Shown here one piece after another: positions 2,037 through 64,000 of a stretch of DNA of 64,000 nt. Where the stretch lies: assembly GCA_963792585.1 (NCBI GenBank), contig CAWBWI010000003.1, positions 352,001 to 416,000 on the forward strand, in the 5' to 3' direction. How positions within the stretch are numbered: the first letter of the stretch is position 1; each line of letters begins with the position of its first letter. A program made the position numbers and the translations under genes. The notes beneath the pieces were generated by a model, which had not been told where the DNA came from, made no database searches, and was given only the letters and a program-made list of their open reading frames with translations. Source of the DNA: Candidatus Eiseniibacteriota bacterium. GTDB taxonomy: Bacteria; Eisenbacteria; RBG-16-71-46; CAIMUX01; VGJL01.

Positions 2037-2068
2037 ACGCGATTCTAGCGATCGCGCGCACGAGTCCG

Positions 2069-3106: not shown

Positions 3107-3342
3107 GGGAAAAGCACGTGCGATCGCGCGATGGAAGATCCAGATCGGCGCAGGGAATTGTGAGGGGCACACAGTCCCACCCGTATCATGCACCCTTCCC
3201 ATGAAGAACCCCCGTGCCCCTCGAGGAGATGATCGGCGAAACCGGAGAAAAGCGCACCGTAATCATTTTCAGTGTTTCCGATGGGATGGCTTGGAACTTG
3301 CCCTCGCGCGATCTCGGGGGACGGGCCAGAGGAGGGGATGGA

Positions 3343-4569: not shown

Positions 4570-4823
4570 GATCCAAACCTCGTTGCGCGGTCGGGGGATC
4601 CAGGGCCGTGACGCCCATGTGCGCTCGAGACGGCGTGCAACTCATCGTTCATCCAGGCGCAGGCGAGCTTCACCTCGCCACATGCGCGAATCATCGCGCG
4701 ATCGATCGATTGTCCGGGGAAAGGGAAGTTCTCGGCGGCCCGAACGGCATGGATGCCATAGAGGGCACCGCCGGGAACTTCCCGGATCCCCAGAGAATCA
4801 CGCTCCGTGCGGGAATCGCTCAT
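4566..4823 (-). pseudogene. aspA: Truncated aspartate ammonia-lyase/fumarase-family remnant
   Basis: 85 aa starting RTERDSLGIREVP..ALYGIHAVRAAENF, the N-terminus of this family. The rest of the protein is missing. Confidence 0.75.
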
Positions 4824-6244
4824 ACGAGGAGATCCCGCTCACCGGACTCGGAGATCCTGCGGAGACGGTTGGCGATCTCACGCTTCATGGGCCCTTCCTC
4901 GAGGCGGGCCATCTCGTCGTCGATCTTGCGCAGACCCGCCGCACGGGTCTCCGGAGAAGCGTGATCGACGAGGTACTCCATCAGGGTCGTCAGGGCGTTG
5001 GGCGTGCAGAAGCGTTGGATGAAGCCTGGAATCGCGTATTCCATGAAGACCTCGCCCGTACGCCCCACGCGGTAGCAGGCGGTGCAGAAACTCGGCATGT
5101 GGCCGGTCTCGATCAGCTCGCGGATCACTTCGTCGAGGGGGCGCCTGTCGCCGAGCGTGAACTGCTCCCGCTCGATCGCCTGCACATCCGAGGAATCCGT
5201 ATAGCCGCCGAGTTCGATCCGGCTGCCGCCGTCGATCTGGGAGACGCCGAAGTCGATCGCCCCACGGCGGACATCGGCGGTTTCGCGGGCGGTGAGGATC
5301 ATCCCGGTGTATGGAACCGAGACGCGCAGGATCGCAATCAGGAGGAGCAGATCCGCGTCCGAGACGGAAGGAGCCCCTTTGAAGTCGACACCCTGGGCGG
5401 GACGAATGCGCGGGAAGCTGATCGTGTGGGGACCGACGCCGTAGCGATCGAAGAGATGGCGCGCGTGCGCAACGAGGCCGAGGGTGTCGATGCGCCAGTC
5501 GGCGAGACCGAACAGCGCGCCGATGCCGACGTCGTCGCATCCGGCTTCGATCGCCCTGCTCGGGCCGTCGAGTCGCCAGAGGAAGTCGCCCTTTCGTGAA
5601 CTGCTCGGGTGCATCCGCCCATAGACTTCGTGGTCGTAGGTCTCCTGGAAGATCTGGTATGTGCCGATCCCAGCGGCTTTGACGACCTTGTATCCGTCAT
5701 GATCGAGGGGCGCCGCATTCACGTTGACCCTGCGAATTTCATCATGGCCGGTGCGCGTGGCGTAGACCTCCCGTACCGCGGCGGCGATCGCCTCCGCGTC
5801 ATAGCGAGGATGCTCTCCGAAGACGAGGATCAATCTCTTGTGACCGACCCCCTCGAGGGCGCGGACCTGTTCCCTGATCTCCGCGGGATCGAGTGTGCGG
5901 CGCACTGCGTCCGGGTTCGATCTGCGGAAAGCGCAGTAGGCGCAGTCGTTCACGCAATCGTTCCCGATGTACAGGGGGGCGAAGAGGACGATTCGGTCGC
6001 CGTAGACGCGCCGCTTGAGCTCGCGAGCGGTTTCCTGGATCTCCTCGCGAAGAGCCGGGTCGTCCGCGCGGAGGAGATCAGCGGTTTCGTTCACGGTCAG
6101 CGCCTGCAGCGAGAGGCTCTTGGCTAGGATCTCGCGGACACGCTCAGGAGCGGGGCGGTCATGCTCCAACAGCGTGCGAAAGAGGGAGTCGTCTATGAAA
6201 TCAGCGGCGCCCTCGCTCAGTTTCATCGCGGGAAGGACCGGCAT
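4820..6244 (-). CDS. hydG: [FeFe]-hydrogenase radical SAM maturase
   Basis: LFAPLYIGNDCVNDCAYC radical SAM motif, YQIFQETY, and C-terminal SFCTACYR...FCTPNA auxiliary-cluster motif. Start placed at MPVLP. Confidence 0.96.
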   Translation of the reverse strand: MPVLPAMKLSEGAADFIDDSLFRTLLEHDRPAPERVREILAKSLSLQALTVNETADLLRADDPALREEIQETARELKRRVYGDRIVLFAPLYIGNDCVNDCAYCAFRRSNPDAVRRTLDPAEIREQVRALEGVGHKRLILVFGEHPRYDAEAIAAAVREVYATRTGHDEIRRVNVNAAPLDHDGYKVVKAAGIGTYQIFQETYDHEVYGRMHPSSSRKGDFLWRLDGPSRAIEAGCDDVGIGALFGLADWRIDTLGLVAHARHLFDRYGVGPHTISFPRIRPAQGVDFKGAPSVSDADLLLLIAILRVSVPYTGMILTARETADVRRGAIDFGVSQIDGGSRIELGGYTDSSDVQAIEREQFTLGDRRPLDEVIRELIETGHMPSFCTACYRVGRTGEVFMEYAIPGFIQRFCTPNALTTLMEYLVDHASPETRAAGLRKIDDEMARLEEGPMKREIANRLRRISESGERDLLV

Positions 6245-6246
6245 GC

Positions 6247-7269
6247 TCAAGTCCTCCCCCGGGCGCGGGAATCGCCGCGTCCCTTTCCCACGGATCGACC
6301 CATCGCGGCGATGCGCCCGCGGAGGCATTCGTGGCAATCGTCGGCGGTTTCGAGGAGGCAGGCTTTGTCGGGATATATCGTGTAGTGCTCGCGGTACTGC
6401 GGCGGCGTGATGTTCGGCATGAGGACATTCGCGCCGCGAGCGAGGCCGAGTTCGCGTCCGGCCAGCCTGTTCACGGTTGCCAGCGCCGTCGTGCTGGGGA
6501 TGTTGGCTGCCGGACAGACGAGCCGGGCGAGGGCGACGACTTTGTAGGTCATCGTCTCGCTGTCCCACGGCGGGCAGGCCTCCGATGCCAGAGGGGTGCC
6601 CGGGTGGGGAAGGTAAGGACCGACGCCAATCATGTCGAGACCGATACGCCGGAAGGTCTCGACATCATCGGCGAGGTCCTCGCAAGTCTGTCCTGGCAAG
6701 CCAACCATCACACCACTTCCAACCTCGTATCCCAACCGTCGAAGTCGGAGGAGAATGGTTATCCGATCCGGACCACCGGCGATCAGAGGGGGGTGGATCC
6801 GCTCGTAGAGCGCCCGGTTGGAGGTCTCGAACCGCAGGAGGTATCGATCGGCGCCCGCCCGCTTCCAGCTCGCGAGATGTTCGTCATCGCGTTCGCCAAG
6901 GCTGAGCGTCACGGCGAGGGGAGTCTCCGACTTGATCGTGTGGATCGTGTCCTCGATCGCCGCCCGTGTGAGACCCAGATCCTCGCCCGACTGCAGGACG
7001 ACGGTGCCGTATCCAAGCGCGACCGCCTCGCGGGCGCAGGCGACGATCTCATCGGGCGTCATGCGGTAGCGCTCAACGGCCGAGCCGGCGCGGATCCCGC
7101 AGTAGGCGCAGAGTCGTGCGCAGTGATTCGAGATCTCGATCAGGCCGCGCAGGTGGATCGCATCCCCGACGACCGTCCGCCGGACATGGTCCGCCCGGTC
7201 CCATAGCTCCCGGAGACGGCCGGGATCCTCTTCGTGGAGCCAACGAAGGATCTCCGCGCGCTCGATCAT
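6247..7269 (-). CDS. hydE: [FeFe]-hydrogenase radical SAM maturase
   Basis: LRGLIEISNHCARLCAYC, VVLQSGED, RYLLRFET, GANVLMPN, YTIYPDK. Confidence 0.96.
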   Translation of the reverse strand: MIERAEILRWLHEEDPGRLRELWDRADHVRRTVVGDAIHLRGLIEISNHCARLCAYCGIRAGSAVERYRMTPDEIVACAREAVALGYGTVVLQSGEDLGLTRAAIEDTIHTIKSETPLAVTLSLGERDDEHLASWKRAGADRYLLRFETSNRALYERIHPPLIAGGPDRITILLRLRRLGYEVGSGVMVGLPGQTCEDLADDVETFRRIGLDMIGVGPYLPHPGTPLASEACPPWDSETMTYKVVALARLVCPAANIPSTTALATVNRLAGRELGLARGANVLMPNITPPQYREHYTIYPDKACLLETADDCHECLRGRIAAMGRSVGKGRGDSRARGRT

Positions 7270-8417
7270 GAATGCGCGACCGTTTCCATTGCCACACCGG
7301 TTCGCCCCAGCGTCACGGTGAAGGTGGTGCCGACATCCGCCTCGCTTTCGACGCCCACGTCGCCTCCGTACACCTGGGCGAGCCGCTTGACGATGGAGAG
7401 CCCGAGCCCGCTCCCGAGGATGTTGCGCGTCTTGTCATTCTTGATCCGCACGAACTCGCCGAAGAGCTTCGCCGATTCCTCATTCGTCATGCCGATGCCG
7501 GTGTCCGCGACCCGGATCGTGACCCGATCTGCGTCCGCGGCGATCGTCACGTCGACGTGGCCCGCTTCGCGGTTGTACTTCACCGCGTTGGTGACCAGGT
7601 TGTTCAGGACGATCTCGATCTCTCCCGGGTCGGCGTTCATCGTGACGGGGCCTTCCGCGTGCATCTCGATTCCGATCCTCCGGGCGGTCGCGTCCGGCGT
7701 GACGGTTTCGATCGCCTTGCGGGCGATCTCGCAGACATCCAAGGCGACGAGATCCCGTTGCTTCTGGCCGGACTCGAGGCGGGTGAGATCGAGCAGATCG
7801 AGGATGAGCTTGCGCATGCCCTCGAGGCGGATGAGGGAGCGGTCGATCGCGCTGTCGTACGCGGCGATGTCATTCCCGATCGCGCGGTTCTGCATGATGT
7901 TCAGATAGCCCTGGATGGCCGCGAGGGGCGCCTTCAGTTCGTGGACGAGGATGGAAATGAACTGAAAGCGGATCTGGCGCTTCTCGAGGGCGAGGCGGCG
8001 GGCCTGGCGTTGGAGGAGCAGATGTTTTGCCGTCTTGCGCACCGTCGTCCTGAGTTCCTCGGGCGTGAAGGGTTTTGCGAGGAAGTCGTAGGCACCCCGC
8101 TTCGTCGCGATGACCGCGGTCTCGAGGGACGCATAGGCCGTGATCATCACGGTCAGCAGGTCGAGGGGGCGATCCGCCAGAGCCGCGAGGACGTCGAGCC
8201 CCGAGATTCCCGGGAGTTTGTGGTCGAGGAGGAGCAGGTCCGGGGCGGCCGCGGCGATCTTCTCCAGGGCTTCCTCACCGGTCCCCGCTTGTTCGACCTG
8301 GAAGCGGACGTCGCTGTCGATCTCGGGAATCGAGACGGTGAATCCGTCGAGGGCCCGGGCGACGGCGGCCCGCATCCCCGTCTCGTCATCGACGATCAGC
8401 ACGCGCAGTTGTTCCAT
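7266..8417 (-). CDS. Hybrid receiver-domain/histidine kinase
   Basis: N-terminal receiver (VLIVDD, LLLLDHKLPG, FLAKPF), H-box HELKAPL, NLVTNAVKY, DTGIG, GSGLGL. Confidence 0.92.
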   Translation of the reverse strand: MEQLRVLIVDDETGMRAAVARALDGFTVSIPEIDSDVRFQVEQAGTGEEALEKIAAAAPDLLLLDHKLPGISGLDVLAALADRPLDLLTVMITAYASLETAVIATKRGAYDFLAKPFTPEELRTTVRKTAKHLLLQRQARRLALEKRQIRFQFISILVHELKAPLAAIQGYLNIMQNRAIGNDIAAYDSAIDRSLIRLEGMRKLILDLLDLTRLESGQKQRDLVALDVCEIARKAIETVTPDATARRIGIEMHAEGPVTMNADPGEIEIVLNNLVTNAVKYNREAGHVDVTIAADADRVTIRVADTGIGMTNEESAKLFGEFVRIKNDKTRNILGSGLGLSIVKRLAQVYGGDVGVESEADVGTTFTVTLGRTGVAMETVAHS

Positions 8418-8419
8418 CG

Positions 8420-8821
8420 TCAGCTTCCTTTCAGCCGATGAGTCGGTCGATCTCGCGGCGCAGTTCCTCGAAGCGAATCGGCTTCGCCAGGAGCGCGTCG
8501 GCCTTGATCCAGGAACGCTCTTCCTGAGTGGCCGCGTCGAAGGCGATTCCGGTCTCGACTGGTCACGGCGGTCACGAGAATCACCGGCGTGCCCGGGTGG
8601 AGTTTCTTGATCCGGTGGCACAGGACGAAGCCCGCGTCGAAGTTCTCCATCATGAGGTCGAGGATCGCGAGATCGGGGGCGTTGCCCGCGATCAACTCCT
8701 CGGCCTTGGCCTGGCCGTCGGCTACAAGGACGCGAAAGCCCGCGGCTTCGAGTTGCAGCTGTTGCTGGAGGAGGAAGTCCGGGTCGTCGTCGACAACGAG
8801 GATGGTTTTGGGTTCGGTCAT
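8420..8821 (-). CDS. Single-domain response regulator (frameshifted near the C-terminus)
   Basis: ILVVDDD, LAILDLMME, VILVTAV. The C-terminal part continues in another frame. Confidence 0.85.
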   Translation of the reverse strand: MTEPKTILVVDDDPDFLLQQQLQLEAAGFRVLVADGQAKAEELIAGNAPDLAILDLMMENFDAGFVLCHRIKKLHPGTPVILVTAVTSRDRNRLRRGHSGRAFLDQGRRAPGEADSLRGTAPRDRPTHRLKGS

Positions 8822-10821
8822 TCCTGCTGCCCTCTCCTGGGAAGGGTGATGGTGAACGTGGTCCCCGTCGGACCGTTCGCCGGATCGGCGTTCGAATCGA
8901 CATGAATGTCGCCACGGTGCATCTTGATGATCCCGTAGCTGACCGCAAGTCCGAGTCCCGTGCCCTTACCGATCTGCTTGGTCGTGAAGAACGGCTCGAA
9001 GATCTTGCCGAGGTTCTCCTTCGGGATGCCGACTCCGGTGTCGGTCACCGAGATGCGCACCCGACCCTCGTCTCCGCTGGTGCCGACGATCAACGTGCCG
9101 CCCTCCGGCATCGCCGCATAGGCGTTCTCGACGAGGTTGGTGAGCACCTGCGTGATCTGATCGCCATCGAGTTCGGCGACAGGATCGGTACCGTCGTGCA
9201 CACAACGGACCGCGACGTTCGCGGGCGGTACCAGAATTCGCAGACTCGAGTCGATGAGATTGCGCAGGTCGATCGCCTCGAGCGCGACCTTGTTCTGTCG
9301 CGCGAAGTTCAGCAGGCCGGCAACGATCTTCTTGCAGCGATCGGTCTGCTCGACGATGATCGCGAGATCTTCCTCGAGTTTCTCGTCTTTCCCGTGCTCA
9401 TCGAGGAGGAGATGAGCATACATGAGCACCACGCCCAGCGGATTGTTGACTTCGTGGGCGATGCCCGCAGCGAGCTGCCCCATACTGGCGAGGTTCTCGG
9501 AGTGCATCAGCGCCTCCTGCGCGCTGGCGAGCTGCGTGTTGGAGACCGCGAGTTCGCGGACGGTTCGCTGCAGCTGATCGATGGTGTAGGGCAGGCACAT
9601 CTCGCTCTCGGCCAGTCCCTTATGGATGGCGATGGCGTGGGCCACGCAGGTGTCGTAGCCGCAGGCGCCGCAGTTGAGCTCGTCCTTTGGGCGACTCCTT
9701 GCCGATCCGCTGCAGGATCTCCGCGATCTCATCGCGGGAGGGAGGATCGAACCGCTGATCGTCGGCCGTATAGGTCCGCGTCAACCCGAGGTTGTCGAAT
9801 TTCGCCATCTCCCCGCGGATTGTCTTCTCGCTGGGGCCGATCCAGCGCTTGCGGACGAACTGGCTCACGCGCGAACGACGGCTGAAGAGGGGAGTGCCGA
9901 CGGTCATGCCCGGGCCCATGATGCAGCCGTTGCAGCAGAGGACCTCGAGCAGTCGGGCACGAAGATCGCCGGCTTCGAACTCCTTGATGGCCTCGACGAA
10001 GTTGCTGCGTCCCTCGGCGACCATCACGTCGCCGTCGACCAGGTCCTCCTGGATGTCGGCGGCCTGCAGAAGCCCGCGGCTGATGGGGAACAGGGCGCCG
10101 CCCGCCGTGCGGCGGGTCGAAGTCCGACGGTGGAACAGCGGCGGGGATCAGGTCGCGGGAGGCGAACAGTTGGCGCAGCTCGGAGAAGGTCAGCGCGCGT
10201 CGATCTCGCCGGCCATTGCCTTCGCGTCCGCCTCGCCCTTCTTGGCGATGCACGGACCGATGAAGACGATCTTCAGGTCCTCTCCGTGGAGTGCCTTGAG
10301 CGCACGGGCCATCGCGACCATCGGCGAGACGATGGGAGCGAGCGAAGGGACCGAGTCCGGGTGGTAACGCTCGACGTAGCCGACGACGGCCGGGCAGGTC
10401 GTGGCGATGAATCGTCGCTGGGGATTCTCCTCGACCAGCGTGCGGTAGCGATCGGCGACGAGATCGGCTCCGAAGCGACCTCGTGCACCATCGCGAATCC
10501 CATCGCCCGCAGCATCCCGACGAGCGTGGTGTATCCCATGTCGAGGAACTCGGCGGGGAAGCTCGGCGCCAGGCAGGCGCCGACTCGCGCGCCGGAGGCG
10601 AGCAGCGCCTCCACGTCCTCGATCGAACTGCGGACGTGCTTCGCCTTCTGCCTGCAGACGACGACGCAGTTGCCGCAGCCGATGCAGCGCTCGGCGATCA
10701 CGGCCGCCTGGCCGTCGGCGATGCGGATCGCCTTGGCCGGGCACTCGCGCACGCACGTGTAGCAGACGCGGCAGCGCTCGTTGATCGTGGAGACAAGAGG
10801 TTCGGCCGTAGCTTGCTTCAC
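8818..10821 (-). CDS. Sensory [FeFe]-hydrogenase-like protein fused to a histidine kinase (several frameshifts)
   Basis: Pieces across frames: 2x[4Fe-4S] ferredoxin ([23 protein letters not shown]), H-domain motifs [19 protein letters not shown] and [24 protein letters not shown], then AHEVNNPL and an HATPase ([14 protein letters not shown]). Confidence 0.85.
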
Positions 10822-51880: not shown

Positions 51881-51909
51881 TTGACGGCCCCCCGGGATTT
51901 CTCCAGAAT
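51881..51909 (+). promoter_or_regulatory. Sigma70-type promoter for the tRNA/enzyme operon
   Basis: TTGACG (51881-51886), 17-nt spacer, CAGAAT (51904-51909), about 90 nt upstream of the tRNA 5' end. Confidence 0.6.
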
Positions 51910-52001: not shown

Positions 52002-52307
52002 GCGTCCGTAGCTCAATCGGAAAGAGAAGTCCCACATACGACGGCCCGAGCACGGTGACGCGGACTGAGAAGCGAGGATATGTCGGTAATGCCTTCTGAC
52101 GTCCGGGTCTGGGGGCAGGAGGAGAGCCGGAACCTCTCTTCCCGACGGATCCCCGGTATTCCCTTTCCTGCTTCGCCTGCCTTCAGTATCGGCGCCACCT
52201 TTCTGAAGGCACGCATGTCACGTGTGAATGCCTCTCGTCGTGGGAAGCTCAAGAGCACCGGCCTTATAATCCGGAGACTGCGGGTTCGAGCCCCGTCGGA
52301 CGCACCA
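52002..52307 (+). tRNA. tRNA gene with anticodon UAU (reads AUA), split by a 229-nt insertion in the D-arm
   Basis: Joining 52002-52026 to 52256-52307 gives a 77-nt cloverleaf: acceptor GCGTCCG/CGGACGC, D-arm GCTC-AATCGGAAA-GAGC, anticodon arm CCGGC-CTTATAA-TCCGG (TAT at 52265-52267), 5-nt variable loop, T-arm GCGGG-TTCGAGC-CCCGT, A73, encoded CCA. Confidence 0.85.
52027..52255 (+). ncRNA. Structured intervening sequence inside the tRNA (intron-like, class unknown)
   Basis: AAGAG is repeated at both junctions. The ends pair (TCCCA..CGACG with CGTCGTGGGA). Internal stems include TGCCTTCAG/CTGAAGGCA (52178-52211), GGCAGGA/TCCTGCT and CGGAC/GTCCG. Confidence 0.6.
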
Positions 52308-52357: not shown

Positions 52358-53422
52358 GTGAAACGACCGTCCACTCGCCAGGAGACTCTGGAGCGGGACG
52401 GCGCGCGGGAGAGAATCCCCGCGGGCGTGGATCCCTCGACGCGTCTCGTCGATCTGTCGCCCTACTACGGACACCTGGAGTGCTTTCAGGCTCTCCGTCC
52501 ACTCCTGGTGAAGACGAATCGCTTCACGTATGCGCCCAGCTACCCGCCGAACGAGCGGATGCAGAACACGTGGCTTTCGATCGCACTGGAAGGAATCGCG
52601 ACGCTTGCCGCGCATCGCACCGGGGAGGTCTGGGAGGATCTCGCGATCGTCGGCACGGGCAACGGCCTCGACGCCGTGGGGATCTCCCGAATCGTCCAGC
52701 CGAGGTCGATCATCGCCTCCGATATCCACCCGATCGCACTACAAGCGGCACGATGGAACATCGCCAACTATGTTGCGGAGGATTGCCGGGTCGCGGTTGT
52801 ACAAAGCGATCTCTTCGATGGATATCCGCCCGGGGCCGCATTCGACCTCATCTATGAGAATCTCCCGAACATCCCGGACGAGAAGGAGCTATTCGACGGG
52901 GTCCGCAGCGCGAGCTGTTTCGCGCCACGCGCCCAGCGGGTCGCCACGACGTTCGACCGGCATCTCCTGACCCTCCACCACGATTTTCTCATCCAAGCGC
53001 ACACTCGTCTCCGCGACTCCGGTTGGATCGTGGGTGTGATCGGAGGACGGATCCCGGTGCAGACGATTCACGAGCTGTTTGCGGACGCCGGGTATCGGTC
53101 CACGGTCGCCGCCTTCGGCCTCAAGATCCAGAGCGAGGGCGATGTGGTTCTGCCCGCCTATGCCGCAGCAGAGCAAGAGACCGGCGTCTCCTTCGTCTAT
53201 TACCATCCGCTCGAGGCGTGTCTTGCGATCGTGCGTGAGCTGTCGCAGCCGGAGGATCTTGCCGCGCGCGCGGAATACGCGGGACTGCTCACGGAACGAC
53301 TTCGGCCCCTCCAGATTCCGTCGACCGAAGCCGTACGCCTCCACGCAGGAGGAGCGGCCGTTTGCCACACGGTCTATGTCATGGCGGCTCAGCGAATCTG
53401 TGGTGGTCCCGCGAATGGGTGA
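52358..53422 (+). CDS. SAM-dependent methyltransferase, methionine S-methyltransferase (MmtN/MMT)-like
   Basis: IVGTGNGLDA, ASDIHP, FDLIYENLPNIP, IGGRIP, LKIQSE, VCHTVYV. GGAGGAG ribosome-binding site before the GTG. Confidence 0.75.
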   Translation: MKRPSTRQETLERDGARERIPAGVDPSTRLVDLSPYYGHLECFQALRPLLVKTNRFTYAPSYPPNERMQNTWLSIALEGIATLAAHRTGEVWEDLAIVGTGNGLDAVGISRIVQPRSIIASDIHPIALQAARWNIANYVAEDCRVAVVQSDLFDGYPPGAAFDLIYENLPNIPDEKELFDGVRSASCFAPRAQRVATTFDRHLLTLHHDFLIQAHTRLRDSGWIVGVIGGRIPVQTIHELFADAGYRSTVAAFGLKIQSEGDVVLPAYAAAEQETGVSFVYYHPLEACLAIVRELSQPEDLAARAEYAGLLTERLRPLQIPSTEAVRLHAGGAAVCHTVYVMAAQRICGGPANG

Positions 53423-54182
53423 AGCCGACTACTTCAGGGAAGCCTCCGTCATCGATGCGATGACGGCGGAGCATCGGATTCTGTGGCGAACCCTCTTCGT
53501 GGCCTGTGGGCCGCACATCCGACCCGGCATGCGGGTTCTGGATTTCGGTTGCGGCAACGGTGGGATGCTCGCCTATCTCATGCTTGGGGACGGGAAGAAG
53601 TGGCCCGGGTGTCACTGCTCCCTTGGGATGGGGATCGATCGTCCCGAGCTGAACGCTGTGCTGGCGATGGCCGGCGACCGGCTTGGCCGGGAGTTGCCCG
53701 TCGTGTTCACTTCCGCTTCTCCCCGCTCGTTCCCTGGCCAATTCGATCTCGCCCTTTCGCACGAGGTCATCTACCTCCTCTCGGACCTCGCCGAGACGTT
53801 CCAAGGGTTGCGCGCCGCGTTGAGGCCGGGCGGCGTGATCGCCCTGGCGACGGGATGCCACAGCGAGAACCTCCTCTATCCAAGATGGACGGAAGCTCTT
53901 GCGCGGGTGGGGGTGTGTGCCCACCCGTACGGGATCCCGGACTACGTTCGGGCGCTCCGCGATGCCGGCTTCGAGGATGTCGGCAGTGCCAGCATGCGGA
54001 TGGAGGTCGATGACTACGAGGAATGGCTAGAGGTCCGGGGAGACCCTGAGCCGAATCCCGAGTGGTTCTCCACGTCCGAGGAAGAGCGGCGGTATTACAC
54101 GGAGTTCGGCAAGACGCTGATCACCGCTCGCCGGGCGTTGGCCGAGGAGCCGTCGACTGTACCCCCGCGGGAAGGGCCGTGA
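53415..54182 (+). CDS. Class I SAM-dependent methyltransferase (255 aa)
   Basis: VLDFGCGNGG, FDLALSHEVIY, LRPGG. Overlaps both neighbours. Confidence 0.88.
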   Translation: MGEADYFREASVIDAMTAEHRILWRTLFVACGPHIRPGMRVLDFGCGNGGMLAYLMLGDGKKWPGCHCSLGMGIDRPELNAVLAMAGDRLGRELPVVFTSASPRSFPGQFDLALSHEVIYLLSDLAETFQGLRAALRPGGVIALATGCHSENLLYPRWTEALARVGVCAHPYGIPDYVRALRDAGFEDVGSASMRMEVDDYEEWLEVRGDPEPNPEWFSTSEEERRYYTEFGKTLITARRALAEEPSTVPPREGP

Positions 54183-56245
54183 CCGTCGCGCCCGACTATA
54201 TCCCCGAGACCATCGAGGCCAAGTGGCAACGGTTCTGGGAGGAGCGGGGGACGTTCCATGCGCATGCCTGCGGGGCGAGCAAGTTCTACTGCTACAATCC
54301 CGCGCCCTATGTCACCGGCACCCTTCATATGGGTCATGTCCGCAATTACACCTACGGTGATTTCCTCAGCAAGTTCCGGCGTCTTCACGGAGCGAACGTC
54401 CTCTACACGATCGGCTTCGACGCATTCGGCGTGCCCACAGAGGTGGCGGCCATGCGGAAACGGTTGGACCCGGCCGCCTGGACGGCCGGCTGCATCGGGG
54501 AGATGAAGAAGCAGCTTGTTCGAATGGGGTTTGGATTCGATTGGCGACGCTCCTTCTCCACGGCCGATGCGGACTACTACAAGTGGACCCAGTGGATCTT
54601 CATCGAGATGTTTCGGGAGGGCATCGTCTACGAACGGGAAGCGGAGACGCTCTGGTGTCCGCAGTGCGACATGGCCCTCGCCAAGTCGCTCACGGTCGAC
54701 GGCAGGTGCTTCCTGTGCAACATCGCAGTCGAGACGCGCGTCACAAGCCAGTGGTTCCTTCGCATCTCGCGCTATCTGGACCGTCTCAGGGATGATCTCG
54801 CCGAGGTCAGGGACCTCAACGGCCAGGCGCGTGCGGGACAGGAGAGTCTCCTCGCCTTCCGCAGCCTCTGGGGTGTCTGGTTGATCGAGCCGAAGACCGG
54901 GACCAAGGTTCTCGCCTGCATGGATTCTCCCGATGACTGGTCCAGGCATCTCGTGTTGGCGGTTCACCCTCAGGATTGGCCGACGCGACGGGCGCTCGCG
55001 GGGATCGCCGTCGAGCCGATCTCGGGCAGGTCCTTCGCAGTCGTCGTCGATCCTATGCTCGACTCGCTCTATCTGGATCAACCCGTGCTGAAGATTGTCC
55101 CGCGGGAGGGCGGAGCGCAGGCAATTGAACATGCGCCGGCGGATGGGATCTTCCCGCTCACGGTGAACGAACAGAAGGACTTCTCTGTTTCGCGCCAGCG
55201 ACTCTGGGGAACGCCCATCCCGATGGTCCGGTGTGAGACGTGCGGAGTCGTCCCGGTGGAGGCCGCGGATCTTCCCGTGCGGTTGCCGCGGATCGAAGCC
55301 GATGGCTCCGGACGGCTGCGGCGAACCGAACCCGGGTGGGACGTTCGCGCGTGCCCTTCATGCAAACGGCCGGCAATGCTCGATCCCCAGGTCATGGATT
55401 GCCACTTCGATGCGCTATGGCACTACTGGCGCCCCTGTGTTGGCTCCACGGCGGAGTTTCCTTTCGACTCGGACGAAGCCCGGTATTGGATGCCGGTCGA
55501 CCAGATCCAATTCGGCAGGGACACGATTCCGTTCCTCCTGACCCTGCGGCTGTTCACGAAGTTCCTGAAGGACCGCGGGCTCTCGGATTGCTCGGAGTTC
55601 GCCCGCGAGATGCTTGCGCACGGTCTGATCCTCATGGGCAATCGGAAGATGAGCAAGCACATCGGCAACGTCGTCGATCCGGAGCAAATGATCACCCGTT
55701 TCGGGGCGGACAGTCTTCGGTTCTATGTCCTCGCCAGGAGCGATCCCAGGAGCGATTATAGCTGGTCGGAGGCGAGCCTCGCGCGCTATCACGAGCTCTT
55801 GAAGCACTACTACGAGGATCTGGACCCTGAGACTTCGAGGGAGACAGCGGCGGCGGGAATGGAGGGATCGAAGACGGGATCCGCGGGGAAGTACCTGTCG
55901 ATCTTTCTCACAAAGGTGTTGCGCGAGGTGGAGGTACTGGAGTCGAGCGTTGAAAGTGGACGGTTCGACATCTACGCGCGGGCGGTTGCGCGAATCCTGG
56001 AAGCGCTTCATCTGTTCAAGGAGCGGTACTACACGCAGGCGGGATCGTGGGGGCGGGAAGCGTGGGGGAAGTGCGCGGAGCAGTCCATTCTCTACCTCGC
56101 CCCGATCGCGCCACACATCGCGGAGGAGTGCTGGGAGCGAAGCGGCCGAGCGCCGGGAGTCTTCGCGGGAGTGCGTTGGCCATCAGACGGCCCGATGGTC
56201 GTTCGAGATTTGGTGGAGGAAGCGAAGAGGCGGAGGCAGTCGTGA
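54179..56245 (+). CDS. Divergent leucyl-tRNA synthetase paralog (class Ia, 688 aa)
   Basis: IEAKWQRFW, PYVTGTLHMGHVRNY (HIGH), GFDAFG, YYKWTQWIF, SRQRLWGTPIP, KMSKHIGNVVDP (KMSKS), GADSLR, LAPIAPHIAEECW. GTGA overlap with the upstream gene. Confidence 0.9.
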   Translation: MTVAPDYIPETIEAKWQRFWEERGTFHAHACGASKFYCYNPAPYVTGTLHMGHVRNYTYGDFLSKFRRLHGANVLYTIGFDAFGVPTEVAAMRKRLDPAAWTAGCIGEMKKQLVRMGFGFDWRRSFSTADADYYKWTQWIFIEMFREGIVYEREAETLWCPQCDMALAKSLTVDGRCFLCNIAVETRVTSQWFLRISRYLDRLRDDLAEVRDLNGQARAGQESLLAFRSLWGVWLIEPKTGTKVLACMDSPDDWSRHLVLAVHPQDWPTRRALAGIAVEPISGRSFAVVVDPMLDSLYLDQPVLKIVPREGGAQAIEHAPADGIFPLTVNEQKDFSVSRQRLWGTPIPMVRCETCGVVPVEAADLPVRLPRIEADGSGRLRRTEPGWDVRACPSCKRPAMLDPQVMDCHFDALWHYWRPCVGSTAEFPFDSDEARYWMPVDQIQFGRDTIPFLLTLRLFTKFLKDRGLSDCSEFAREMLAHGLILMGNRKMSKHIGNVVDPEQMITRFGADSLRFYVLARSDPRSDYSWSEASLARYHELLKHYYEDLDPETSRETAAAGMEGSKTGSAGKYLSIFLTKVLREVEVLESSVESGRFDIYARAVARILEALHLFKERYYTQAGSWGREAWGKCAEQSILYLAPIAPHIAEECWERSGRAPGVFAGVRWPSDGPMVVRDLVEEAKRRRQS

Positions 56246-57306: not shown

Positions 57307-58029
57307 ATGATGAGGAAGGTCGCCCTGCTCCTTGTTCTGAGTTCCATTTTCGGAGGCGGCGCGCTCGCCGCCAATCCCAGCCTGAGTGCGGGAGGTGGCG
57401 GCAGCCCGAACGTCCTCAACTCCGGCCGAGAAGTTATCTGGAGTGAGCCGCCTGACCTCGAAGGTCTGATCGCCTCGTCGGAAGTCATCGGGCAATTCGC
57501 CCTTGAGACGGAAATCGCCAACGACTTCTATATCTCCTGGGATACCTGTATCGGCGGCGCTCGCTGGTGGGGCGGTTATTACAACAACAACGGCTGTAGC
57601 GACATTGGCATCGCGACAAACTGGAACCTCCGATTCTACGATGACGGCGGCTGCGTTCCGTTGACGACTCTTTCCGAGACGGTGGGCGCCTTCGCAAACG
57701 AGACTTTCATTTACTGCCAGGGCGGGTTCTACCCGGTCTTCCAGTACGAAGCCTACACATCATACGTCTACATCACGGCGAACACCCTGTACTGGTTCGG
57801 CGCACAGGCATCCGATCACGCGTTTCCGCCGCAGGTGGGCCGTATCGCCTCCGCATGGGTCGTCGGCTGCGACACGGTGTTCAAGAGTGCCTACTTCTCG
57901 TACCCCGACTGGACGCCCGGCATCGACGTGTTCGGTGTCGCCTTCGATGCCAGCCAGGAGTTCGAGAACTGGTGCATAGTTCCGACCGTGACGACCACGT
58001 GGGGCGCCGTGAAGGGGCTCTACCGGTAG
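57307..58029 (+). CDS. Array copy 1: secreted protein with C-terminal TTWGAVKGLYR motif
   Basis: AAGGAGG ribosome-binding site, signal peptide, WSEPPDL, IANDF, RWWGGY, YWF. One ATA at 57976-57978. Confidence 0.9.
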   Translation: MMRKVALLLVLSSIFGGGALAANPSLSAGGGGSPNVLNSGREVIWSEPPDLEGLIASSEVIGQFALETEIANDFYISWDTCIGGARWWGGYYNNNGCSDIGIATNWNLRFYDDGGCVPLTTLSETVGAFANETFIYCQGGFYPVFQYEAYTSYVYITANTLYWFGAQASDHAFPPQVGRIASAWVVGCDTVFKSAYFSYPDWTPGIDVFGVAFDASQEFENWCIVPTVTTTWGAVKGLYR

Positions 58030-58333
58030 GTCCGGCGAATGGGGAGGTCCGCTGTGGCGCAGCGGGCTTCAGGTGGCACACAAAGAGTTTGGTGGCGTTG
58101 GGGCGCTCCCGTCGATGCGGCGGGGGCGCTTCTTGCATCCGGCCGCGGCGGCCCTCGGTGGACTCCATCCCCGGGACGGTAGATAATCGACGGCAACAAT
58201 TCCCGACGGCTCTTGGGTCGGGGGTGCAGGCGGCTCGGCGGTCAAACGAGGACGGGCACCGCACCGTGACGCCCGCCTGGTCCCGCGCGTGATCGTCGTT
58301 GTGTGCTGTGACAAACCACAGGAGGGAGTCCTC

Positions 58334-59047
58334 ATGATGATACAGATCGCCCTTGTCCTGAGTCTGGTCGTTGCCAGCGGAGCGCTTGCCATCAACCCAT
58401 CCCTGAGCGGGGGCGGTGGCGGTACGAATGTTCTGAACTCCGGTCGCGAAGTCGTCTGGAGCGAGCCACCGAACCTCGACGGTTTGATCGGGTCGTCGGA
58501 GGTTATTTGGGAGTTCTATGTCGTGACGGAACTTGCCAACGATTTCTTCCTCACTACGAACCACGGCCTCGACATCGCTCGCTGGTGGGGTGGCTATTTT
58601 TACAACAGCAGTTGCGGCGATGTCGGTGTCGCCACAAATTGGAACCTAACATTCTACGATGATGTCGGTTGCATACCGGAACATGTGCTTTACGAGCGTA
58701 TGGGCGTCGATGCGAACGAGACTTTCGTCTATTGCCAAAGCGACGTCTACCCGATCTTCAGCTACGAGGTCGCCGATCTGAACTTCACAGCTCAGGCGAA
58801 TACCCGATACTGGTTCGTCGCGCAGGCAGCTGACCATACGTTCCCGCCCCAGGTAGGTCGCGTCGCTTCCGCCGGAGTCGTCGGCTGCGAGACCGTCTTC
58901 AGAGGGTCCTACTTCTCGTACAACTACTGGACTCCCGTTATCGATGTGTTCGGCGTGGCGTTTGATGCCAGCCAGGAGTTCGAGGAGTATCACATAGTCC
59001 CTACTGAAAGGACCACGTGGGGCGCCGTGAAGGAGCTCTACCGGTAG
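58334..59047 (+). CDS. Array copy 2 (most divergent)
   Basis: Same motifs, ending TTWGAVKELYR. ATA at 58994-58996, and also at 58340 and 58673. Confidence 0.9.
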   Translation: MMIQIALVLSLVVASGALAINPSLSGGGGGTNVLNSGREVVWSEPPNLDGLIGSSEVIWEFYVVTELANDFFLTTNHGLDIARWWGGYFYNSSCGDVGVATNWNLTFYDDVGCIPEHVLYERMGVDANETFVYCQSDVYPIFSYEVADLNFTAQANTRYWFVAQAADHTFPPQVGRVASAGVVGCETVFRGSYFSYNYWTPVIDVFGVAFDASQEFEEYHIVPTERTTWGAVKELYR

Positions 59048-59350
59048 GTCCGGCGAATGGAGAGGTCCGCTGTGGCGCAGCGGGCTTCAGGTGGCACACA
59101 AAGAGTTTGGTGGCGATGAGGCGCTTCCGTCGTTGCGGCGGGGCGCTTCTCACGTCCAGTCGCCACAGGCTTGGGTGGACATCGGCCTCGCAGGAGCAGA
59201 TACTCGTAGGCGGCGAATCCCTGCGGCTCTCGAGCCGGGGGATCCGACGGACTGCTGGTCGAGGGAGCCCGCCACCCACCGACCGTCGGTCCGGCCATGG
59301 ACCTGTTCGTCGTTGAGTCTCGTGACAGCCGAAAGGAGGGAATCCTCGCT

Positions 59351-60079
59351 ATGAGGAAGGTCGCCCTTGTCCTTGTCCTGAGCTGCGTCGCCGGGGGCGG
59401 CGCGCTGGCCGTCAACCCGAGCATCATGGCCGGCGGAGAGGGCACGCAGAACGTCCTAGACTCCGGTCGAGATCCCGTCTGGAGTGAGCCGCCCGATCTA
59501 GAGGGTCTGATCGCTTCGTCGGAAGTTATCGGGCAGGTCGGCCTCGAGACGGAAATCGCAAATGACTTCTACATCGACCATGACGAGTACATCAGTATCG
59601 CCCGCTGGTGGGGCGGATACTACAACAACAACGGCTGCAGTGACATCGGGTACGGCACGAACTGGAATCTGCGCCTCTACGATGACTTGGGCTGTGTTCC
59701 GGGGTCAGTGCTTTCCGAGACTCTAGGGCTGTCGGTGATCGAGGCCTTCGTATACTGCCAGGCTGGCCTCTACCCGGTCTTCGAATACTGGGCATGCGTC
59801 GAGTTCTGGGTCGCGGGGAATACATTGTACTGGTTCGGTGCACAAGCATCCGATCACACGTTCCCACCGCAGGTCGGTCGCGTGGCCTCTGCCGGAGTCG
59901 TCGGCTGCGACTCCGTATTCAAGAGCGCCTACTTCTCGTATCCGGATTGGACGCCCGGTATCGACGTCTTCGGGGTCGCATTCGACGCGAGTCAGGAATT
60001 CGGCAATGGTATCTGCATAGACGGACCTGTCCCTAATCAGCGGACCACGTGGGGCGCCGTGAAGGGGCTCTACCGGTAG
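59351..60079 (+). CDS. Array copy 3
   Basis: Same motifs. One ATA at 60017-60019. Confidence 0.9.
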   Translation: MRKVALVLVLSCVAGGGALAVNPSIMAGGEGTQNVLDSGRDPVWSEPPDLEGLIASSEVIGQVGLETEIANDFYIDHDEYISIARWWGGYYNNNGCSDIGYGTNWNLRLYDDLGCVPGSVLSETLGLSVIEAFVYCQAGLYPVFEYWACVEFWVAGNTLYWFGAQASDHTFPPQVGRVASAGVVGCDSVFKSAYFSYPDWTPGIDVFGVAFDASQEFGNGICIDGPVPNQRTTWGAVKGLYR

Positions 60080-60381: not shown

Positions 60382-61098
60382 ATGAGGAAGGTCGCCCTTG
60401 TCCTTGTCCTGAGCTTCGTCGCCACAGGCGGCGCGCTCGCCATCAACCCGGGCATCATGGCTGGCGGGGGGGGCACGCAGAACGTCCTCAACTCCAGCCG
60501 AGATGTTGTCTGGAGTGAGCCGCCCGACCTCGAAGGTCTGATTGCCTCGTCAGAAGTCATCGGGCAATTGGCTCTCGAGACGGAAATCGCAAACGATTTC
60601 TACCTTCCCTGGGACTACTGGATCTGCGTCGCCCGCTGGTGGGGTGGTTACTACAACAACAACGGCTGCGGCGATGTCGGCATCGCGACGAACTGGAACG
60701 TTCGGTTCTACGATGACGGCGGCTGCGTGCCTCTTACCCTGCTGAACGAGACGCTCGGCGCGTTCGCGAACGAGACCAGCGTCTATTGCCAGGATGGCTT
60801 CTACCCGATCTTTAGGTACGAAGTTGACGTCAGCATGCCGATCACCGGCAACACCCTGTACTGGTTCGGCGCGCAGGCTGCCGACCATGCGTTCCCGCCG
60901 CAGTGCGGCCGCGTTGCCTCCGGCTCCGTCGTCGGTTGCGACACGGTGTTCAAGAGTGCCTACTTCTCGTACTCCGACTGGACGCCCGGCATCGACGTGT
61001 TCGGTGTTGCGTTCGACGCCAGCCAGGAGTTCGTGATCGGGTGCATAGTTCCAACCGTCACGACCACGTGGGGCGCCGTGAAGGGGCTCTACCGGTAG
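60382..61098 (+). CDS. Array copy 4
   Basis: Same motifs. One ATA at 61045-61047. Confidence 0.9.
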   Translation: MRKVALVLVLSFVATGGALAINPGIMAGGGGTQNVLNSSRDVVWSEPPDLEGLIASSEVIGQLALETEIANDFYLPWDYWICVARWWGGYYNNNGCGDVGIATNWNVRFYDDGGCVPLTLLNETLGAFANETSVYCQDGFYPIFRYEVDVSMPITGNTLYWFGAQAADHAFPPQCGRVASGSVVGCDTVFKSAYFSYSDWTPGIDVFGVAFDASQEFVIGCIVPTVTTTWGAVKGLYR

Positions 61099-61406: not shown

Positions 61407-62129
61407 ATGAGGAAGGTCGCCCTTGTCCTTGCGCTGAGTTTCGTCGCCGCAGGCGGTGCACTCGCCGTCAATCCGAGCATCATGGCCGGTGGGGGGGGCA
61501 CGCAGAACGTCCTCAACTCCGGCCGTGACGTGGTCTGGGGTGAGCCGCCCGATCTCGATGGCCTCATCGCCTCGTCAGAAGTCATCGGACAACTCGCTCT
61601 CGAGACGGAAATCGCAAATGACTTCTGGGTTGATCATGACGGCTCCATCGATTGTGCCTGCTGGTGGGGAGGGTACTACAATAACAACGGCTGCGGTGAC
61701 ATCGGTATCGCTACGAACTGGAACCTCCGGTTCTACGATGACGGTGGCTGCGTTCCGCTGTCGGTCCTCGCCGAGACGGTGGGCGCCTTCGCTTACGAGA
61801 CCAGTGTGTACTGTCAGGGTGGGCTCTACCCGGTCTTCCAGTACGAAGCTGGCGTCGACTTCCAGATCACGGGGAACACATTGTACTGGTTCGGCGCGCA
61901 GGCATCCGACCACACGTTTCCGCCGCAGGTAGGCCGTATCGCCTCCGCAGGGGTCGTCGGCTGCGACTCCGTGTTCAAGAGTGCCTACTTCTCGTACCCC
62001 GACTGGACGCCTGGTATCGACGTATTCGGTGTCGCCTTCGATGCGAGTCAGGAGTTTAGGGAATACTGCATACTACCTGTCGGCACGCAGCGGACCACGT
62101 GGGGCGCCGTGAAGGGGCTCTACCGGTAG
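61407..62129 (+). CDS. Array copy 5
   Basis: Same motifs. One ATA at 62070-62072. Confidence 0.9.
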   Translation: MRKVALVLALSFVAAGGALAVNPSIMAGGGGTQNVLNSGRDVVWGEPPDLDGLIASSEVIGQLALETEIANDFWVDHDGSIDCACWWGGYYNNNGCGDIGIATNWNLRFYDDGGCVPLSVLAETVGAFAYETSVYCQGGLYPVFQYEAGVDFQITGNTLYWFGAQASDHTFPPQVGRIASAGVVGCDSVFKSAYFSYPDWTPGIDVFGVAFDASQEFREYCILPVGTQRTTWGAVKGLYR

Positions 62130-62432: not shown

Positions 62433-63158
62433 ATGAGGAAGGTCGCCCTTGTCCTTGTCCTGAGCTTCGTCGCCACAGGCGGCGCGCTCGCCATCAACCC
62501 GAGCCTGAGTGCGGGGGGTGGCGGCAGCCCGAACGTCCTCAACTCCGGCCGATACGTCATCTGGAGTGAGCCGCCTGACCTCGAAGGTCTGATCGCCTCG
62601 TCGGAAGTCATCGGGCAATTCGCCCTCGAGACGGAAATCGCCAACGACTTCTACGTCCCCTGGGATACCTGTGTTGGTCTCGCTCGCTGGTGGGGAGGCT
62701 ACTACAATAACGCCGGTTGCGGTGACATCGGTGTCGCTACGAACTGGAACCTCCGATTCTACGATGACGGTGGCTGCGTTCCGTTGTCGATCCTGTCCGA
62801 GACGGTGGGGGTCTTCGCGAACGAGACCTTCATCTACTGCCAGGGCGGGTTCTATCCGGTCTACCAGTACGAAACCGCCGCAGTATACGTCGCCGTCACG
62901 GCGAACACGCTGTACTGGTTCGGCGCGCAGGCATCGGATCACGCGTTTCCGCCGCAGGTGGGCCGTATCGCTTCTGCATCGGTCGTCGGTTGCGACACGG
63001 TGTTCAAGAGTGCCTACTTCTCGTATCCCGACTGGACGCCTGGCATCGACGTGTTCGGTGTCGCCTTCGATGCCAGTCAGGAATTCGAGAACTACAATTG
63101 CGGCATAGTTCCAACTCAGAAGACCACGTGGGGCGCCGTGAAGGGGCTCTACCGGTAG
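62433..63158 (+). CDS. Array copy 6
   Basis: Same motifs. One ATA at 63105-63107. Confidence 0.9.
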   Translation: MRKVALVLVLSFVATGGALAINPSLSAGGGGSPNVLNSGRYVIWSEPPDLEGLIASSEVIGQFALETEIANDFYVPWDTCVGLARWWGGYYNNAGCGDIGVATNWNLRFYDDGGCVPLSILSETVGVFANETFIYCQGGFYPVYQYETAAVYVAVTANTLYWFGAQASDHAFPPQVGRIASASVVGCDTVFKSAYFSYPDWTPGIDVFGVAFDASQEFENYNCGIVPTQKTTWGAVKGLYR

Positions 63159-63462: not shown

Positions 63463-64000
63463 ATGAGGAAGGTCGCCCTTGTCCTTGTCCTGAGCTTCGT
63501 CGCCACAGGCGGCGCGCTCGCCGTCAACCCGAGCCTCATGGCCGGTGGGGGGGGCACGCAGAACGTCCTCAACTCCGGCCGAGATACCTACTGGAGTGAG
63601 CCGCCCGATCTGGAGGGTCTGATCGCGTCCTCGGAAGTCATCGGGCAGTTCGGCCTCGAGACGGAAATCGCAAACGACTTCTATCTCACCCAGAACGCCA
63701 CTGTCTGGGCCGTCTGGTGGGGTGGGTACTACAACAACAATGGTTGTGGCGACATCGGTGTTGCAACGAACTGGAATCTTCGGTACTACGACGACGGTGG
63801 CTGTGTTCCGCTGAACACGGTTTCCGAAGGTCTCGGCGCGTATGCGAACGAGAACTTCGTCTATTGTCAGGGCGGGTTCTACCCGATCTTCCGGTACACG
63901 GCCGACGTCTGCTGCGCGGTTCTCGCGAATACGCTGTACTGGTTCGGCGCGCAGGCAGCCGATCACGCGTTCCCGCCTCAGGTCGGCCGCGTAGCCTCTG
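63463..64000 (+). CDS. Array copy 7, truncated by the window end
   Basis: ATGAGGAAGGTCGCC start and an open frame with WSEPPDLEG, IANDF, WWGGY and YWFGAQ to the end of the window. Confidence 0.88.
   Translation, partial: MRKVALVLVLSFVATGGALAVNPSLMAGGGGTQNVLNSGRDTYWSEPPDLEGLIASSEVIGQFGLETEIANDFYLTQNATVWAVWWGGYYNNNGCGDIGVATNWNLRYYDDGGCVPLNTVSEGLGAYANENFVYCQGGFYPIFRYTADVCCAVLANTLYWFGAQAADHAFPPQVGRVAS

Follow-up and report, generated by a model that had tools for sequence, protein, structure and literature searches.

A candidate operon for message-selective recoding of AUA in Candidatus Eiseniibacteriota

Introduction

The DNA considered here is a stretch of 64,000 nucleotides (the window) from Candidatus Eiseniibacteriota bacterium (assembly GCA_963792585.1, contig CAWBWI010000003.1, positions 352,001 to 416,000 of the forward strand). 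It harbors an operon with the order tRNA(UAU)-MT1-MT2-synthetase-NAS-like, in which the four protein genes overlap by 4-8 bases, i.e., a tRNA with a UAU anticodon is followed by genes for two S-adenosylmethionine (SAM) methyltransferases (MT1 and MT2), a synthetase derived from leucyl-tRNA synthetase (LeuRS) and an enzyme resembling nicotianamine synthase (NAS). Downstream of the operon are found seven tandem genes for secreted proteins that end in TWGAVKxLYR, each with an ATA codon 17-20 codons before the stop, within an otherwise hypervariable stretch, and each followed by a conserved element of ~105 bases. Because this arrangement combines an operon like that of pyrrolysine, a 3' tag like that of selenocysteine and a tRNA with a built-in extension, we consider it rather probable that AUA is recoded, in selected mRNAs, to a non-standard residue derived from SAM.

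The window is part of the source genome (G000), the contigs of which are denoted C1, C3 and C4; coordinates without a prefix refer to the window. A phylum-wide search covered 206 genomes, of which two, G000 and a second genome (G017) from another genus of the same family with a 94% complete assembly, provided the DNA context of the operon.

Architecture of the operon

The features of the operon are as follows:

51881..51909, + strand, candidate promoter of the sigma-70 type (TTGACG-17-CAGAAT) preceding the tRNA; consensus match only
52002..52307, + strand, tRNA with UAU anticodon (52265-52267) and ~229 extra nucleotides (nt) in the D-loop (about 52023-52251); acceptor pairing, Rfam match to the 3' half
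52180..52209, + strand, insert hairpin, candidate guide, with a loop GCGCCAC (52192-52198) complementary to the loop of the 3' element; complement ranking, folding
52358..53422, + strand, MT1, class I SAM methyltransferase; family and structural match to MmtN
53415..54182, + strand, MT2, class I SAM methyltransferase; closest in sequence to phosphoethanolamine N-methyltransferases, E 8e-10
54179..56245, + strand, class Ia synthetase of LeuRS descent, its pocket rebuilt, CP1 shortened and the C-terminal domain lost; open reading frame of 688 amino acids (aa), motifs, family score
56242..57042, + strand, NAS-like aminocarboxypropyl transferase; PF03059, catalytic residues

The second genome shows the same operon order and the same UAU anticodon, with proteins that are 41-46% identical to those of the source genome. 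Only these two of the 206 phylum genomes have the synthetase, and the same two have MT1; one further MT1 homolog is assigned to Candidatus Eisenbacteria in a protein database. Of 12 synthetase homolog clusters (10 of the 12 were looked up), 8 match an MT1 or NAS homolog in the size of the longest contig, which we take to reflect the same operon. Genes for transporters, tailoring enzymes or a SelB-like elongation factor were not found in the operon; PF00009 hits, all factor types counted together, number 16 in G000 and 12 in G017.

A LeuRS-derived synthetase with a rebuilt pocket

The synthetase gene starts with GTG and overlaps the stop of MT2. The best-scoring family is that of bacterial LeuRS (NCBIfam leuS_bact, TIGR00396), reached at 391 bits, i.e., under the 548.4 cut-off, and the best PDB match is LeuRS of T. 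thermophilus (1H3N, E 2e-130), which displays the class Ia fold. A first-pass annotation, made from the sequence alone, had described a LeuRS paralog with intact ATP-binding motifs, an altered amino-acid pocket, unrecognizable editing motifs and no C-terminal domain, and the alignments bear out this description throughout. The ATP-binding motifs HMGH (residues 50-53) and KMSKH (490-494) are invariant or nearly so in 13 aligned rows, and PAPYVTG, MDCHFDALWH and FGRDTIPFLLT replace the canonical MFPYPSG, MDTFxxSSWY and GGxEHAxLHLLY. In CP1, TTRPDT is missing and the GTG..PAHD block is deleted, so that the CP1-containing span comprises 142 aa vs 227-234 aa in five canonical LeuRS. The last LxPxxPH helix is followed by 42 residues vs 92-93 in the four canonical rows in which this motif could be scored, and the VQVNGK C-terminal domain is missing.

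The same build is found in 12 homolog clusters (P0002-P0013; 45-89% identical) among 120 listed. PF13603 is not found in these clusters but is present in the other homologs among the matches listed. Since the 12 clusters share the changes, with PAPY, DCH, QFGRD and KMSKH invariant across their alignment, the altered motifs do not represent decay, and the invariance of the new pocket letters (N40, P41, A42, C408, H409, H415, Q444, F445, R447 and D448) indicates that the pocket is under selection. Aligned to 1H3N and read through the roles of LeuRS residues, the pocket presumably keeps the Asp and the Tyr that bind the amino group. In the wall of hydrophobic residues around the side chain, two His, one Arg and one Asp are gained and one Phe is lost. 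The pocket is thus probably larger and polar, and probably binds a zwitterion.

In a FastTree phylogeny of 58 hand-picked rows the synthetase family forms one clade (SH support 100), whose long branch lies well apart from the leuS of the host itself, i.e., the paralog does not derive from that gene. The canonical leuS of the source genome lies elsewhere (C1:260148-262571), and together with the conserved rebuilding of the pocket it fits the earlier suggestion of a non-Leu substrate. The check for a separate housekeeping leuS that had been suggested alongside was thus positive for the source genome; in the G017 assembly no such gene was found. The sister group of the synthetase clade (SH 94) consists of other editing-less LeuRS paralogs of unknown context. 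At least 25 such paralogs (P0058, P0163-P0242) were seen, in several clades, one of them with a GNAT domain, and their pockets are rebuilt differently (CPFTSG/DTLDCH.D/KMSKHL and LPPF.NG types); they may mark further recoding systems or biosynthetic clusters. Scans of sequence collections with the synthetase alignment yielded 160 loci, none of which belongs to this family, the matches being dominated by a generic LeuRS word.

Companion enzymes

The NAS-like protein scores 45.3 bits with PF03059 (cut-off 27.1) and falls far under the cut-off of the CntL equivalog. Its residues E77 and Y106 are invariant in 11 of 11 aligned rows and correspond to Glu81 and Tyr107 of MtNAS, the pair with catalytic roles in that enzyme (PMC10491745).

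The predicted structure of MT1 (pLDDT 84) has the fold of MmtN, its closest match at 17-19% identity; HemK-type enzymes follow just 1.6-2.5 Z units behind, so that MT1 may act on a different substrate. A sequence YENLPN, invariant in the MT1 alignment, presumably falls where Cys121 of MmtN would lie, as judged at this low identity from the MmtN motif. MmtN is a Met S-methyltransferase in which Asp69, Ser101, Leu102, Cys121, Arg132 and Glu127/250 have been highlighted (PMC9135737). Because MmtN is the best structural match of MT1, the mention of S-methylmethionine as a candidate substrate in the first-pass annotation gains some support. An IMG/VR scan gave no MT1 match. Distant MT1 homologs (P0156-P0160; 32-36%), one of them from Aspergillus, and Atlas clusters of Pseudomonadota and Ascomycota form an unnamed MmtN-like family.

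A tRNA with an extended D-loop

The tRNA has a perfect acceptor stem of 7 bp (52002-52008 with 52297-52303), A73, an encoded CCA and a variable loop of 5 nt. ARAGORN reported no tRNA in the window and Rfam matches only the 3' half, because of the ~229 nt inserted in the D-loop. In G017 the tRNA(UAU) (L163:12130-12379) carries ~175 extra nt at the same place. The two inserts have no alignable sequence in common; both fold so as to lengthen the D-arm greatly while leaving the cloverleaf intact (z -2.2 and -3.2), and both tRNAs have a 7/5 acceptor branch and a variable loop of 4-5 nt. A neighboring tRNA with a short variable arm had been proposed as the partner of the synthetase. Such a tRNA exists and lies in the same operon in the second genus as well, which is consistent with that pairing. 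The first-pass annotation had overlooked the insertion in its D-loop as well as the target genes with the 3' elements behind them.

As judged by eye, the tRNA core resembles tRNA-Arg(UCU) of the source genome, the anticodon of which is one base change from UAU. The G017 tRNA has C33 instead of the usual U and a G1-U72 pair, and a G49-U65 pair in the T-stem is common to both tRNAs.

RNA of the insert is found in two metatranscriptomes that contain a relative ~93-95% alike, as short contigs over 52122-52212 with a depth of ~1,000-10,000, next to one minor variant of depth 4-5 per run; contigs over MT1 reach depths of 9 and 266. Contig depth is a coarse measure and mature tRNAs of 76 bases are poorly captured. 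No joint that skips the insert is found among the listed RNA contigs, which cannot show that a spliced form is absent. The insert RNA is thus abundant, but its abundance does not demonstrate a lack of splicing. At E<=1, Rfam returned no intron family, group I and group II included, for either genome.

Target genes and their 3' elements

The tandem genes and the elements behind them are located as follows:

57307..58029, + strand, r1, secreted, C-terminal TWGAVKGLYR; single ATA at 57976 (domain/linker junction)
58036..58140, + strand, first copy of the 3' element, comprising a hairpin (loop GTGGCGC, 58054), two further repeats of GTGGC and a second long hairpin
58334..59047, + strand, r2; junction ATA at 58994 and two other ATA (58340, 58673)
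59351..60079, + strand, r3; single ATA at 60017 (junction)
60382..61098, + strand, r4; single ATA at 61045 (junction)
61407..62129, + strand, r5; single ATA at 62070 (junction)
62433..63158, + strand, r6; single ATA at 63105 (junction)
63463..64000, + strand, r7, continuing past the end of the window (stop at C3:416179); its single ATA, at the junction, and the element behind it are located just outside
3' element repeats after r2-r6, loops at 59072, 60104, 61123, 62154 and 63183

A profile of the element finds 14 strong copies in the source genome (E<=1e-19), all directly behind genes with the C-terminal TWG motif. Of 108 such genes, the 14 with an element all have an in-frame ATA in codons -110 to -12, vs 14 of the 94 others. 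In 13 of the 14 this codon falls exactly at the end of a folded domain and the start of a Gly/Pro/Cys-rich linker (e.g., EQGG#PPPDD, LSYTG#GGGG, VNQD#GGLP and IPGC#PEACC, where # is ATA). The 13 genes span three unrelated families, and one of them has ATA at two successive junctions. Within the largest family a junction ATA is present in 11 of 12 members with the element and in none of 11 without it; the element-less members nest twice within the clade that has the element (support 92 and 80, which is weak).

In the first hairpin, 98% of the cells are paired across 13 aligned copies from the source genome and the 7-base loop GTGGCGC is invariant, while the closing pair varies between U-A, A-U, C-G and U-G. 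Pairing and covariation exceeded those of 500/500 shuffles, although related sequences may pass such a control even if they lack structure. The element has no Rfam match and was not found in any other of the 206 phylum genomes, in each of which four candidates were scored.

An unrelated element accompanies the targets of the second genome, where 70 TWG genes were recovered and six have a junction ATA. The motif RCTTCCCRG is found within 120 bases of the stop in five of these six and in none of the 64 others, and it also resides in hairpin loops (unpaired 0.85-1.0). A search of G017 for the RNA motif only gave 15 places, comprising four known targets, one new TWG-variant gene with a single junction ATA and one orphan half-element; the remaining nine, without a target gene, are as many as were found with a reversed-pattern control. 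In three relatives without the operon, 30 TWG genes were examined out of 117 found, and none contains ATA among its final 130 codons or is followed by one of the two elements.

The C-terminal motif as such, [TS]WG.[IVL][KR]..[YF]R, ends 25-108 secreted proteins per genome in G000 and G015-G018. No NCBIfam or Pfam model matched the TWG-motif proteins tested and no family name was found; the motif is likely an undescribed sorting signal. That all proteins with this motif are targets was rejected, as ATA occurs in the last 35 codons before the motif in just 16 of 108.

Complementarity between insert and element

The loop GCGCCAC of the insert hairpin in the source genome is complementary to the invariant element loop, and the insert of G017 contains TGGGAAGTA in an unpaired stretch, complementary to the G017 target motif. 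In both genomes this part of the insert ranks first among the complements to the targets of the same genome. The own-target complements are unpaired (0.74-0.87), while the cross-genome complements are paired (0.26-0.34). A shuffle test of the complementarity in G017 gave 0/150, 7/150, 8/150 and 28/150 in four settings. A direct BLAST of the insert against the target region returned chance-level matches only. The complementarity, as seen in two genomes, is suggestive of pairing.

Decoding of AUA in the source genome

Ordinary decoding of AUA appears to be in place. TilS scores above its cut-off in 5 of 5 genomes tested, tRNA-Ile2 is intact and three tRNAs with a CAU anticodon are found in the source genome. 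Among 64,164 Ile codons in 3,574 genes of that genome (called with a simple gene caller of our own) 1033 are ATA (1.6%). In alignments, 42 of 102 ATA positions coincide with Ile, about as often as for ATC (872 of 2073), and a genome-wide reassignment of AUA was rejected on this basis. From the presence of TilS and the CAU tRNAs and from these alignments it follows that normal decoding does not depend on the extra tRNA.

Outside the window, C3:1-100000 has a GC content of 0.70 and ATA makes up 0.1% of its Ile codons (0.62-0.67 and ~1.6% in the rest of the genome); this region, which is probably foreign or a chimeric join, contains a second tRNA(UAU) of ordinary length (C3:75042-75118). The genes for IleRS, ValRS, one EF-Tu copy and EF-G are split over at least two frames in the source genome (C1:1985897; C3:268485-270298; C3:1187441-1187951; C4:58009-60632), probably as a result of indel errors in the assembly.

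Proposed mechanism and alternative explanations

In the mechanism that we propose, the NAS-like enzyme together with MT1 and MT2 would make an amino acid from SAM, with a methionine-derived backbone (an aminocarboxypropyl adduct and/or a sulfonium); the product would probably be methylated and charged. The synthetase, with its conserved His, Arg and Asp in the pocket and its lost editing, would load this product on tRNA(UAU). The D-loop extension, if unspliced, would pair loop-to-loop with the 3' element and thereby deliver the tRNA to tagged messages only, where it would compete with the ordinary lysidine tRNA-Ile2. Provided that the rest holds, the chance that the extension acts as the guide is slightly better than even, the alternative being a protein adaptor. 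The residue would be placed in the exposed linker, rich in Gly, Pro and Cys, that immediately precedes the C-terminal sorting motif and would most likely serve as a chemical hinge, i.e., as a site of self-cleavage and release or as a handle for cross-linking or metal binding; lactam formation by a gamma-amine and sulfonium-type chain scission are both possible in peptides. The scheme in its complete form, in which a new amino acid is encoded at a sense codon of selected mRNAs, the D-loop guide pairs with a hairpin in the 3' untranslated region (UTR) and the outcome is a programmable cleavage or cross-linking site, is a tentative proposal that we would expect to fail in some part.

Several observations weigh against this interpretation. 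The residue, its charging, its insertion and the RNA pairing are inferred rather than observed, and the DNA context is limited to 2 of the 206 phylum genomes. Most targets in the source genome are paralogs, which inflates the counts; the junctions were judged by eye, and those of G017 were scored after the 3' sequences had been seen. In the source genome, the shuffle test of complementarity gave 1/150 with 7-mers and Watson-Crick pairs and 131/150, 32/150 and 120/150 in the other three settings, and the tRNA also holds TGGGAAG, which is complementary to the G017 loops, though it is paired. RtcB is present in all 5 genomes tested, including those that lack the operon, so splicing of the tRNA is possible. 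Individual genes also deviate from the pattern: the element behind the gene at C3:658799 is divergent and the only ATA of this gene is internal, at a position where its paralogs have Val, r2 carries two ATA besides that at its junction, the G017 gene on L214 has a junction ATA but only CTTCC in a loop instead of the full motif, and the orphan 3' half of the G017 element (G017:C23:128199) does not lie behind a TWG gene. Finally, no canonical leuS was found in the 94% complete assembly of G017, and the position of leuS that is conserved in its relatives holds none; an assembly gap is the likely cause.

Insertion of a canonical residue (Ile, Met, His, Glu or another) at the tagged AUA, as a mistranslation of the ProRSx/tRNA-ProA kind or as an on-switch that depends on a rare codon, with the SAM enzymes modifying the tRNA (U34, A37) or the protein, is unlikely. 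The NAS-like enzyme retains the catalytic pair of MtNAS, which acts on small molecules, the best match of MT1 is an enzyme of free Met, and the pocket is unlike that of LeuRS with editing lost. Furthermore, a tRNA that carries Ile would need no synthetase of its own, as IleRS and TilS are present.

About equally unlikely, or slightly more so, is a programmed release or tagging of the chain, in which the tRNA would end the chain at the tagged AUA by adding a terminal residue and thus give rise to an anchored full-length protein and a released passenger. This outcome would suit the position of AUA exactly between the passenger domain and the linker with its sorting motif in 13 of 14 targets of the source genome and 7 genes of G017, and gamma-amines derived from acp (aminocarboxypropyl) groups are able to form a ring by attack on their own carbonyl; the large additional RNA domain of the tRNA is also reminiscent of tmRNA. 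However, the downstream linker and the TWG motif are conserved and in frame, which is consistent with read-through at least part of the time, and one gene has AUA at two successive junctions. Release differs from insertion of a new residue in outcome only, the machinery being common to both.

It is improbable that the product of the operon is instead a small metabolite (metallophore or peptide-like) formed by acyl transfer with or without the help of a tRNA, that the insert is an intervening sequence or intron and that gene duplication accounts for the AUA/element pattern. Homologs of aminoacyl-tRNA synthetases of the SbzA type work in biosynthesis (PMC9437257), NAS-like enzymes make metallophores (PMC10491745), the sister group of the synthetase clade consists of other editing-less paralogs (SH 94) and many targets are paralogs. 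Against a metabolite, the pattern recurs across two genera, the elements of which are unrelated, and across at least five protein families without relation to each other, the junction ATA is lost together with the element, the motif search predicted a new gene, the operon is devoid of transporter and tailoring genes and the insert matches no intron family. A plain second LeuRS, serving resistance or as a back-up copy, is very improbable, because the Leu pocket, the editing site and the tRNA-Leu-binding C-terminal domain are all gone, the partner tRNA has a short variable loop and the source genome has a canonical leuS, even though LeuRS is the closest named family and the G017 assembly holds no other leuS.

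Beyond the standard 20 amino acids just two additions are known, and each of them is made at a stop codon. If the proposed recoding is true, it would constitute a natural third addition, made at a sense codon and with mRNA-specific addressing that perhaps requires no protein factor. It would provide an orthogonal pair of class I synthetase and tRNA, together with a means of recoding chosen transcripts that can be re-programmed. It would also mean that screens for codon reassignment that average over a genome miss such codes, since >98% of the AUA codons here lie outside tagged genes. The five components and the targets are small and expressible in a laboratory host, which makes the claim directly testable.

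Relation to known systems

A kit for selective recoding of AUA appears to be undescribed in bacteria: no description was found in the open-licence literature, which was covered as listings and openings of abstracts; the supplements of PMC5389517 could list such tRNAs.

Bacterial LeuRS (TIGR00396; 1H3N) and its odd duplicates LeuRS-I and LeuRS2 have in common with the synthetase the catalytic fold, the HIGH and KMSKS motifs, the Zn knuckles and the anticodon-binding helical bundle; here the pocket is rebuilt, CP1 is shorter by ~85-90 aa, the C-terminal domain is lost and the family forms its own long-branch clade. The nearest cases described are ProRSx/tRNA-ProA of Streptomyces and CysRS*/SelC*, in which, as here, a paralogous synthetase has co-evolved with a neighboring tRNA that has a mismatched anticodon (PMC9437257, PMC5389517). 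These pairs keep the ancestral canonical amino acid and lack biosynthetic genes, a D-loop domain and any described mRNA tag. Allo-tRNAs also combine a non-canonical architecture with UAU as a frequent anticodon, but have an 8/4 or 9/3 acceptor branch and a long variable arm (PMC5389517), while the present tRNAs have a normal 7/5 branch, a short variable loop and an intact anticodon arm, with the extra domain in the D-loop. In tmRNA, a tRNA part is likewise joined to a large RNA domain, which here sits in the D-loop.

The selenocysteine system with its 3'-UTR SECIS element resembles the present one in that a codon has two meanings and a hairpin follows the stop, located here 17-240 codons away (an association only). 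Selenocysteine uses UGA and tRNA-Sec; here the codon is the sense codon AUA, with its own synthetase and a tRNA carrying a 175-229 nt extension complementary to the element. The source genome also has a selenocysteine system, with tRNA-Sec (C1:683832) beside a SelB-sized GTPase (C1:683832-684989). The pyrrolysine system (pylTSBCD) provides a parallel in gene content, as one operon comprises a tRNA, a dedicated synthetase and three possible biosynthetic enzymes, and the targets are few. There, a class II PylRS and a CUA tRNA that reads UAG are combined with Lys chemistry, while the operon described here combines a LeuRS-derived class Ia synthetase, the AUA/UAU pair, SAM chemistry and a 3' RNA tag.

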